Shown here: positions 57,367-58,200 of the stretch, piece after piece
Layout of the letters: each line of letters begins with the position of its first letter
How positions within the stretch are numbered: position 1 is the stretch's first letter
Source of the DNA: Oligoflexia bacterium
Lineage (GTDB): Bacteria > Bdellovibrionota > UBA1018
DNA length: 64,000 nucleotides
NCBI GenBank assembly: GCA_963758495.1
Contig: CAVWVI010000004.1
Coordinates: 471,587-535,586 of the forward strand
Reading direction: 5' to 3'
Position numbers and translations under genes: made by a program
Notes under the pieces: generated by a model
Told to the model about the DNA's origin: nothing
Database searches by the model: none
Seen by the model: only the letters and a program-made list of their open reading frames with translations

Positions 57367-58200
57367 CTACACGGCAATCGGCGCAGGAATATGAGGATGT
57401 GGATCATATCCCACAATCTCAAAATCCTCGAACTTGTAATCGAAGATAGAATCCAGGTTTACGCTTAATCACCAACTTCGGAAGTGGTCGAGGCTCCCTC
57501 GTTAGCTGCAGTTTTGCTTGCTCAAGATGATTTTTATAAAGATGTAAATCACCCATGGAAATAATCACTTCGCCGGGTTCAAATCCACATTGCTGTGCAA
57601 CCATGTGAGTAAGGAACGCAACACTGGCCGTATTATAACTGTTGCCAAAAATAAATCATTCGACCGAATATAGAGCAAACAGGAAAGTTTATTATTAGCT
57701 ACATAAAATTGATAGAGCAAATGACATGGTGGAAGCGCCATCTTTCCATCCGCAGCATTTTCCCAAGGTTTCTTTGTCTCATCAGGAAGATAAGCAACAT
57801 TCCAAGCGTGAAATAAATGTCGTCGGCTATCTGGACGGCTTTTCAAGCCCTCAATCAAAGTCGCAATCTGATCAATGTGACCTCCTTTTCCATCTGGCCA
57901 AAAACGCCATTGATATCCGTATACGGGTCCTAGCTCCCCTTCTGGAGTTGCCCACTCATCCCATATCTTCACACCGTTCTCTTTTAAATACTTGATGTTA
58001 GTTTCACCCTTCAAAAACCACAAAAGTTCATGAAGAATCGATTTCGTGTGAAGCTTCTTCGTCGTAAGCAACGGGAACCCCTCAGAAAGATCGTAACGAA
58101 CTTGTCTTCCAAAAACAGACAAAGTCCCTGTTCCTGTGCGATCTGTCTTTTCAGTTCCGTTTTTCAAAACATCATCAAGTAAGTCTAAATATGCCTTCAT
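57367..58200 (-). pseudogene. thyA: thymidylate synthase ThyA, frame interrupted by two single-nucleotide changes (true inactivation or sequence error)
   Basis: N-terminal 196 codons are clear ThyA (DRTGTGT, ALPPCH..QFYV); frame switches after SNDLFL near 57645-57651, next 62 codons are ThyA in the -1 frame ([12 protein letters not shown]...KLVIKRKP), original frame resumes near 57453-57458 for the last ~29 codons. Confidence 0.8.

Follow-up and report, generated by a model that had tools for sequence, protein, structure and literature searches.

The window, by which we mean the whole stretch of 64,000 nucleotides analysed here, carries on its minus strand a thyA gene that holds two frameshifts in the deposited record. 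The start codon (ATG, 58200) and the stop codon (TAG, 57369-57367) lie in the same frame and enclose 834 nt, a length that is identical in every relative. The parts of the gene, together with the folA and tmk genes of the window, are as follows.

57367 to 58200, minus strand: thyA, whole span, 834 nt; repair of both indels gives 277 codons and a stop.
57646 to 58200, minus strand: Segment A, codons 1-185, in the frame of the start codon; carries Cys159, Arg179, Ser180 and Asp182; its 211-aa ORF matches Pfam profile positions 1-178.
57644 to 57652, minus strand: indel site 1, codons 185/186; a base is missing from TTA TTT TTG G^C (plus strand GCCAAAAAT), seen as a single gap column in the alignment with every relative.
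57565 to 57567, minus strand: TGA that ends translation as written and yields a 211-aa product.
57455 to 57645, minus strand: Segment B, codons 186-249, authentic ThyA but out of frame as written; carries Asn190, His220 and Tyr222; its 61-aa ORF matches profile positions 189-238.
57451 to 57458, minus strand: indel site 2, codons 249/250; one surplus base, AAA CCT (G)GAT (plus strand ATCCAGGT).
57367 to 57453, minus strand: Segment C, codons 250-277 plus TAG, in which the original frame is regained.
47986 to 48504, minus strand: folA (dihydrofolate reductase), intact, PF00186 positions 2-159 of 159; the far end of a variable thyA-folA interval.
5026 to 5673, plus strand: tmk (thymidylate kinase), intact, PF02223 positions 1-177 of 185.

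The sequence is authentic ThyA in the start frame up to Leu185 (TTG, 57648-57646), and unrelated residues follow. Indel 1 is the TTTTTGG^C of positions 57644-57648, which corresponds to thyA nt 555/556. Segment B ends at Pro249 (CCT, 57457-57455), next to the surplus G of indel 2 at 57454/57453, so that the two indels are about 190 bases apart and the deposited allele combines TTTTTGGC at site 1 with CCTGGA at site 2. The nucleotide alignment of the window thyA with five intact relatives contained exactly two one-column gaps, one at each indel site. At site 1 the window reads TTTTT-GGC, while the relatives read TT[CT][CT]T[GTA]GG and have the full Leu-Gly pair. At site 2 the window reads CCTGGA, while the relatives and the remnant of thyA found further downstream read CC-[GAT]G[AC]; the surplus G is absent from all relatives, from the metagenome contig L087 and from both thyA remnants described below.

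A preliminary description of this DNA had proposed that the frame is broken by two compensating single-nucleotide changes. The alignment and the Pfam matches agree with it, as one base is deleted and one is inserted with a net length change of zero, and the positions given there for the indels were right to within 1-2 nt. The premature stop at 57565, which leaves the 211-aa ORF, was also read correctly, and the Pfam search found folA and tmk intact in the window as had been described. The out-of-frame stretch between the indels is authentic ThyA, as proposed, but it comprises 64 codons and not 62. Elsewhere in the window, a perfect 18-nt tandem repeat (AGTTACGGCACTGGCAAT) occupies 28627-28896 in about 11-15 copies and encodes SYGTGN repeats inside a 419-aa ORF (27883-29142).

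With one base restored at site 1 and the surplus base deleted at site 2, the gene encodes a ThyA protein of 277 aa. This repaired protein matched PF00303 from the first to the last profile position (1-266 of 266) with E = 1e-114 and 382.6 bits against a cut-off of 24.3, as a full-length member of the family, whereas the pieces as written covered positions 1-178, 189-238 and the remainder. The split coverage of the pieces, together with the full coverage after the repair, shows that the arrangement is not due to chance. The repaired protein was 94% identical to P0001 and 92% identical to P0002, and it reproduced the local motif of its closest homologues. The nearest ThyA proteins (92-94% identical) come from metagenome-assembled genomes (MAGs) labelled Oligoflexales, Bdellovibrionia or Pseudobdellovibrionaceae, and the close homologues P0001, P0003 and P0006 are known only from Logan, from runs other than ERR11523676.

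The E. coli ThyA (PDB 1aob/2tsc) aligned end to end with the repaired protein (E = 1e-113 for 1aob). The residues Cys159, Arg179, Ser180, Asp182, Asn190, His220 and Tyr222 correspond to C146, R166, S167, D169, N177, H207 and Y209 of the E. coli enzyme, and the repaired reading has the catalytic Cys in its P-C-H motif and all the dUMP-binding residues, as is found in members of the family. As deposited, no single uninterrupted frame encodes the whole enzyme, since Asn190, His220, Tyr222 and the C-terminus are out of frame. The earlier statement that the catalytic C-terminus is lost is therefore right for these residues, but Cys159 and the Arg179-Ser180-x-Asp182 motif are kept in the truncated product. 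The E. coli enzyme also differs in lacking a 13-residue insert that is seen in the 277-aa ThyA of the window, whose frame is broken twice as deposited. This 277-aa subtype with the 13-residue insert was found at 75-84% identity in Bdellovibrionota-like MAGs, Porticoccus, Ralstonia pseudosolanacearum, Methylophaga and Nitrosomonadales.

Directly downstream of thyA, a cassette with genes for an SLT-domain protein, a 161-aa protein and a DUF4160 protein lies between thyA and a displaced 3' remnant of thyA (55693-57339).

56656 to 57339, minus strand: SLT-domain protein (PF01464), 227 aa, the first cassette gene; a homologue is in the same place in L088, and the Logan contig L083 is identical.
56196 to 56681, minus strand: 161-aa protein, the second cassette gene; no Pfam or NCBIfam match; 80%-identical homologues in L086-L089.
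55966 to 56157, minus strand: DUF4160 protein (PF13711), 63 aa, a lineage-specific cassette gene.
55820 to 55969, minus strand: 49-aa fusion ORF, whose short N-terminus runs at ...QQCGYEPGD into the decayed thyA fragment.
55693 to 55895, minus strand: displaced thyA 3' remnant, residues about 203-277, with a 1-nt insertion and a 29-nt deletion; its final 95 nt are 87% identical to the main copy.

The homologues in L086-L089 were obtained from a metagenome scan with the 161-aa neighbour protein, and they do not belong to the same species. The remnant is fused behind the first ~25 codons of the small ORF that follows the DUF4160 gene; the N-terminus of this 49-aa fusion ORF had no Pfam match, and we take it to resemble DUF2442. 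The duplicate copy of thyA mentioned in the preliminary description does exist at 55693-55895, but it is this decayed 3' fragment behind the cassette and not a second gene. The contig L088 (9334-11471) has the same plan, consisting of an intact thyA, an SLT homologue, a 172-aa homologue, a GNAT gene replacing DUF4160 and a thyA remnant, which in this case begins at codon Phe184. L081 retains only relics of 143 nt and 63 nt from two cassette genes. The L088 remnant showed 81% identity to the main thyA of the window, compared to 77% to the thyA of L088 itself. Since it is nearer to the copy in the window than to its own neighbour, the remnants are displaced older 3' ends and not local duplications. 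The active thyA of the relatives is intact beside the cassette, so the frameshifts were not caused by the latter. The remnant was also rejected as a donor of the indels by gene conversion, since it begins only at residue ~203, shares 74% identity and does not have the extra G.

The age of the breaks was considered from the substitutions in the repaired gene. The repaired protein had no private residue in a comparison with 128 full-length homologues, while the other sequences had a median of 1 and a mean of 1.7, and it retained all invariant ThyA positions. When the shifted 64 codons were read in their true frame, their pN/pS was 0.025 against L087, 0.06 against L085, 0.09 against L081 and 0.07 against L088, values that were indistinguishable from those of the in-frame parts. 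The low pN/pS means that essentially all of the divergence in this segment arose under ThyA-type constraint. There is no stop inside the three authentic ThyA segments, and thyA is strongly constrained across the clade, with all of the ~10 relatives examined being intact at both indel sites. Judging from these substitutions, thyA appears to have been under strong purifying selection essentially until the present. An old pseudogene is ruled out by the absence of private residues among the 128 homologues, by the pN/pS of 0.025-0.09 and by the absence of further stops. Taken together, the lack of private residues and the low pN/pS show that the shifts are either extremely recent or non-biological. 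The second indel is not a selected compensation of the first, because the stop at 57565 sits between the two sites.

We compared the window with Logan contigs from run ERR11523676, which were assembled independently. The following contigs overlap it.

57381-55782 of the window: Logan contig L083.
61170-58510 of the window: Logan contig L084.
47770-55790 of the window: Logan contig L090.
22246-14536 of the window: Logan contig L091.

The window and the Logan contigs differed by 5 substitutions and 0 indels over 19,993 nt. In the window itself, 41 intact ORFs of at least 200 aa hold 359 homopolymer runs of at least 5 bases, 28 of which have at least 7 bases and 9 at least 8. A general homopolymer-error model was rejected in view of these 359 coding runs in intact ORFs. 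If indel discrepancies arise at 1.5e-4 per nt, the 95% upper limit of the observed rate, chance puts two errors into the same 834 nt with p ~0.007. The two alternatives of the preliminary description, a real inactivation or base-calling errors, both survive, but two independent random base-calling errors are unlikely, and with this p value any artefact needs a local, correlated cause.

Up to 58510, 19 codons into a Fic gene, and again from 57381, 14 nt short of the thyA stop, the window and the Logan contigs agree at 100%. Look-ups via the neighbouring genes retrieved no Logan contig that spans thyA, the contigs ending at 58510 and 57381. Exact look-ups for the 211-aa and 61-aa ORFs gave no record in Logan, and both are recorded only from NCBI and ENA. 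The other window ORFs that were looked up are also in Logan in 12 of 13 cases, and the exception is the Fic ORF, through which the contig end at 58510 runs. Exact look-ups of the repaired 277-aa protein, made with two variants, and of ten guessed partial or half-repaired forms found none of them in the collection. The Logan data speak neither for nor against the indels, but they show that the assembly graph is broken around thyA. A scan of genome contigs for genomes of the same species gave only relatives of at most 88% identity. The end of Logan contig L091 (window 14536-14543) falls exactly at the edge of a C8 run, while the other seven contig ends are off homopolymers; this end may reflect heterogeneity of the run length in the ERR11523676 reads.

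The five substitutions between the window and Logan imply that more than one haplotype exists. By our own codon reading, two of them (48070 and 48076) are synonymous changes in folA, six bases apart, and two others (14676 and 14780) fall in a 609-aa ORF, where one leaves a Leu unchanged and the other exchanges Glu and Asp; the three synonymous changes are at third or first codon positions. These four benign differences point to genuine co-occurring haplotypes ~0.03% apart. The fifth is disruptive and lies inside the thyA-folA interval: the window has an in-frame TGA at codon 11 (49894-49896) of a gene in which Logan has AGA and which is 498 aa long there, and the window ORF is shrunk by it to 427 aa with a start at 50077.

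Strain differences at thyA were also found in the relatives. L087 and L088, which come from JGI metagenomes of sister samples, are 100% identical over 2.7 kb that include the cassette, the remnant and the region beyond. In contrast, L087 1-300 and L088 9034-9332 showed ~25% differences in the 3' part of thyA and in ~25 nt past its stop. This mismatch, being confined to thyA, points to a very recent allele replacement between otherwise identical strains, which makes thyA a known site of strain heterogeneity in this group. The syntenic relative L081 has the order GtrA-PAP2-EamA-unknown-thyA, followed by ~8 kb of unrelated genes and then folA. The window shares this thyA...folA bracket, but a Fic gene is added ahead of thyA and the 9-kb filling is another one, which makes thyA-folA a variable interval in this group. 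The Fic-domain gene (58453-59688) lies between a conserved 468-aa gene and thyA, is absent from this place in L081, L085 and L088, and is the gene in which the Logan contig ends after 57 nt. The 468-aa protein of the window had no Pfam or NCBIfam match.

A stretch of 19 nt in thyA (nt 550-568) holds four boundaries, indel 1 (555/556) being among them. The others are the start of the L088 remnant (nt 550, codon 184), the junction of an island in the MAG L006 (about nt 568) and, directly behind the Gly that pairs with residue 186, the point where the T4-type td group I intron is inserted. In the td gene of Tequatrovirus LF73P1, exon 1 ends with ...GTT TTC TTG GGT and aligns with residues 1-186, and exon 2 follows ~1 kb downstream; window positions 57644-57652 are homologous to the last exon-1 codons before this intron site (L092 2040-2060). 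In the gammaproteobacterial MAG L006 (9259-15120), a resident thyA of 67% GC, which lies downstream of a presumably lgt-like ORF, is cut after ...ADVFLGVPF by an island of 54-57% GC. The island opens with its own complete thyA of the 277-aa type, followed by ORFs of 863 aa and 566 aa that had no Pfam or NCBIfam match. It has the look of a thyA-targeting element that supplies a new copy of the gene; a search of the literature on islands integrating into thyA found nothing relevant. The patchy spread of the 277-aa ThyA subtype, together with this island, suggests that the subtype has travelled horizontally.

The locus resembles the T4 td intron and the I-TevI/I-BmoI sites in that indel 1 falls in the codon directly before the homologous insertion position, and the L006 and L088 thyA boundaries lie at most 10 nt from it. 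Unlike T4 td, the window has neither an intron nor an endonuclease gene at the locus, and its downstream cassette encodes SLT, DUF4160 and unknown proteins. An Rfam search of 55500-58600 found no intron family, and thyA is colinear with its relatives apart from the two 1-nt indels. The locus is thus not a group I intron or homing-endonuclease insertion, and the position alone coincides. A free-standing 140-aa HNH endonuclease ORF (PF01844/PF14279) is located at 22163-22585.

It is conceivable, but in our opinion improbable, that the thyA of this clade is a recombination hot spot at the FLG|xPxN stretch, with its 3' part repeatedly replaced and the old ends left behind the cassette, and that the indels of the window are a fresh scar of error-prone break repair. 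A double-strand break, perhaps from mobile-DNA activity, in the short and highly conserved FLG|xPxN stretch that is a target of mobile elements in thymidylate synthase genes would have been repaired by error-prone synthesis of ~200 nt from a diverged thyA template, which would leave both indels; we consider such a history doubtful. The four boundaries within nt 550-568 speak for it, although this coincidence was noticed after the fact, and site 1 is among only six runs of at least 5 bases in thyA, so it is intrinsically prone to slippage or error. The segment between the indels has an L081-like affinity, while its flanks are L085/L087-like (Fisher p = 0.03, uncorrected), but this mosaic signal is weak, with similar patches elsewhere in thyA and relatives that are ~20% divergent in nucleotides. 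There is no intron or integrase at the locus, the only homing-type nuclease in the window is the HNH ORF at 22163-22585, which is 35 kb off, and no feature is associated with indel 2. I-TevI cuts ~23-25 nt upstream of the intron insertion site, and hence not at the position of the indel. In favour of the break, it is reported that td and thyA are targets of homing endonucleases (PMC5009752). The same report speaks against it in placing the I-TevI cleavage upstream of the enzyme's own DNA-binding site. We also considered whether full-length ThyA could be translated from the gene as written by programmed recoding, with a -1 slip at A-UUU-UUG and a +1 slip at CCU-GGA. Read from the sequence, a -1 slip on UUU UUG followed by GGC gives ...LFLG... 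exactly. However, A-UUU-UUG is not a canonical X-XXY-YYZ heptamer, CCU-GGA is no known +1 site, and neither shift occurs in any relative. The sequence following site 1 folds more weakly than its shuffled versions (z = +1.25) and offers no stimulatory structure, no Rfam element was found at the locus, and two inefficient serial events would starve the cell of an essential enzyme. Programmed ribosomal frameshifting was rejected on these grounds, and we regard it as hardly credible.

The remaining explanations are a local artefact of the consensus at a strain-variable locus, to which we give about an even chance, and a real, very recent loss of function of thyA, which is a serious candidate that we would place somewhat short of even; we lean slightly to the former. 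In the case of an artefact, the long metagenome contig would run through a tract, thyA included, in which strains differ; collapse or thin coverage of the consensus there would produce two clustered 1-nt errors, and the organism would make a normal 277-aa ThyA; we infer such a local disturbance as the cause of the two indels. The artefact is favoured because the repaired thyA has no decay, because the independent Logan assembly is disturbed exactly around thyA, and because multiple haplotypes are present and thyA alleles are swapped in a related population. It is also favoured because two indels with no damaging substitution are an unusual sample for a pseudogene. From bacterial mutation spectra, we estimate that a real pseudogene should gather ~10 substitutions per indel. 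Indel artefacts in MAGs at places of strain heterogeneity or low coverage have the same appearance, with isolated ±1 indels by short G/T runs in a perfect conserved gene where an independent assembly fragments, but they differ from the present case in that there is no other indel trouble in 20 kb or in the 359 coding homopolymer runs. The lack of any indel difference over the 19,993 nt also stands against an artefact, as does site 2 (CCTGGA), which is not a homopolymer, and no intact allele of this population was seen among the repaired 277-aa protein and the ten partial forms looked up. In the case of a real inactivation, the first indel would have killed the gene and the second would have followed neutrally soon after, and the cell would rely on a synthase encoded elsewhere or on external thymidine or dTMP, the latter being plausible for a predatory Bdellovibrionota-like bacterium. 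The indels sit in the consensus of an assembly with otherwise excellent indel accuracy, and two clustered indels fit relaxed selection after a first hit and not a uniform error (p ~0.007). The same haplotype has a second disruptive difference, the TGA at codon 11 of the 498-aa gene (49894), and its other SNPs are mostly synonymous, like real polymorphism; this pattern shows the deposited contig to be a true haplotype other than the Logan consensus, so its disruptive differences could be real. The loss of thyA is a classic event that is tolerated or selected when thymidine is available, and loss-of-function alleles of thyA give thymidine auxotrophy, for example in the thymidine-dependent variants selected by trimethoprim. 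The window allele is similar to those alleles in its small frameshifting indels and intact folA, but it has been hit twice and not once, and no further thymidylate synthase was seen in the window, where no plausible ThyX-like ORF with the RHRxxS motif was found as a back-up within the 64 kb. Other points against a real loss are that there is no other sign of relaxed selection, that thyA is constrained and intact at both sites in the clade, that two indels before any damaging substitution are unlikely a priori (roughly 0.1-0.2 by our estimate), and that neither truncated ORF is in the independent Logan assembly.

An artefact of the consensus and a real young allele are both ordinary, already known kinds of thing. 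The convergence of insertions, a phage intron and displaced gene ends on the 19 nt of thyA stands without real frameshifts and may merit a survey. An annotation should name the gene thyA, list both frameshifts and warn that they may stem from the assembly, and the locus should not be counted as evidence for thymidine auxotrophy or ThyX dependence. If the indels are real, they would show the loss of thyA just as it begins, in an uncultured bacterium that is probably a predator, and a dependence on prey-derived thymidylate would be predicted.
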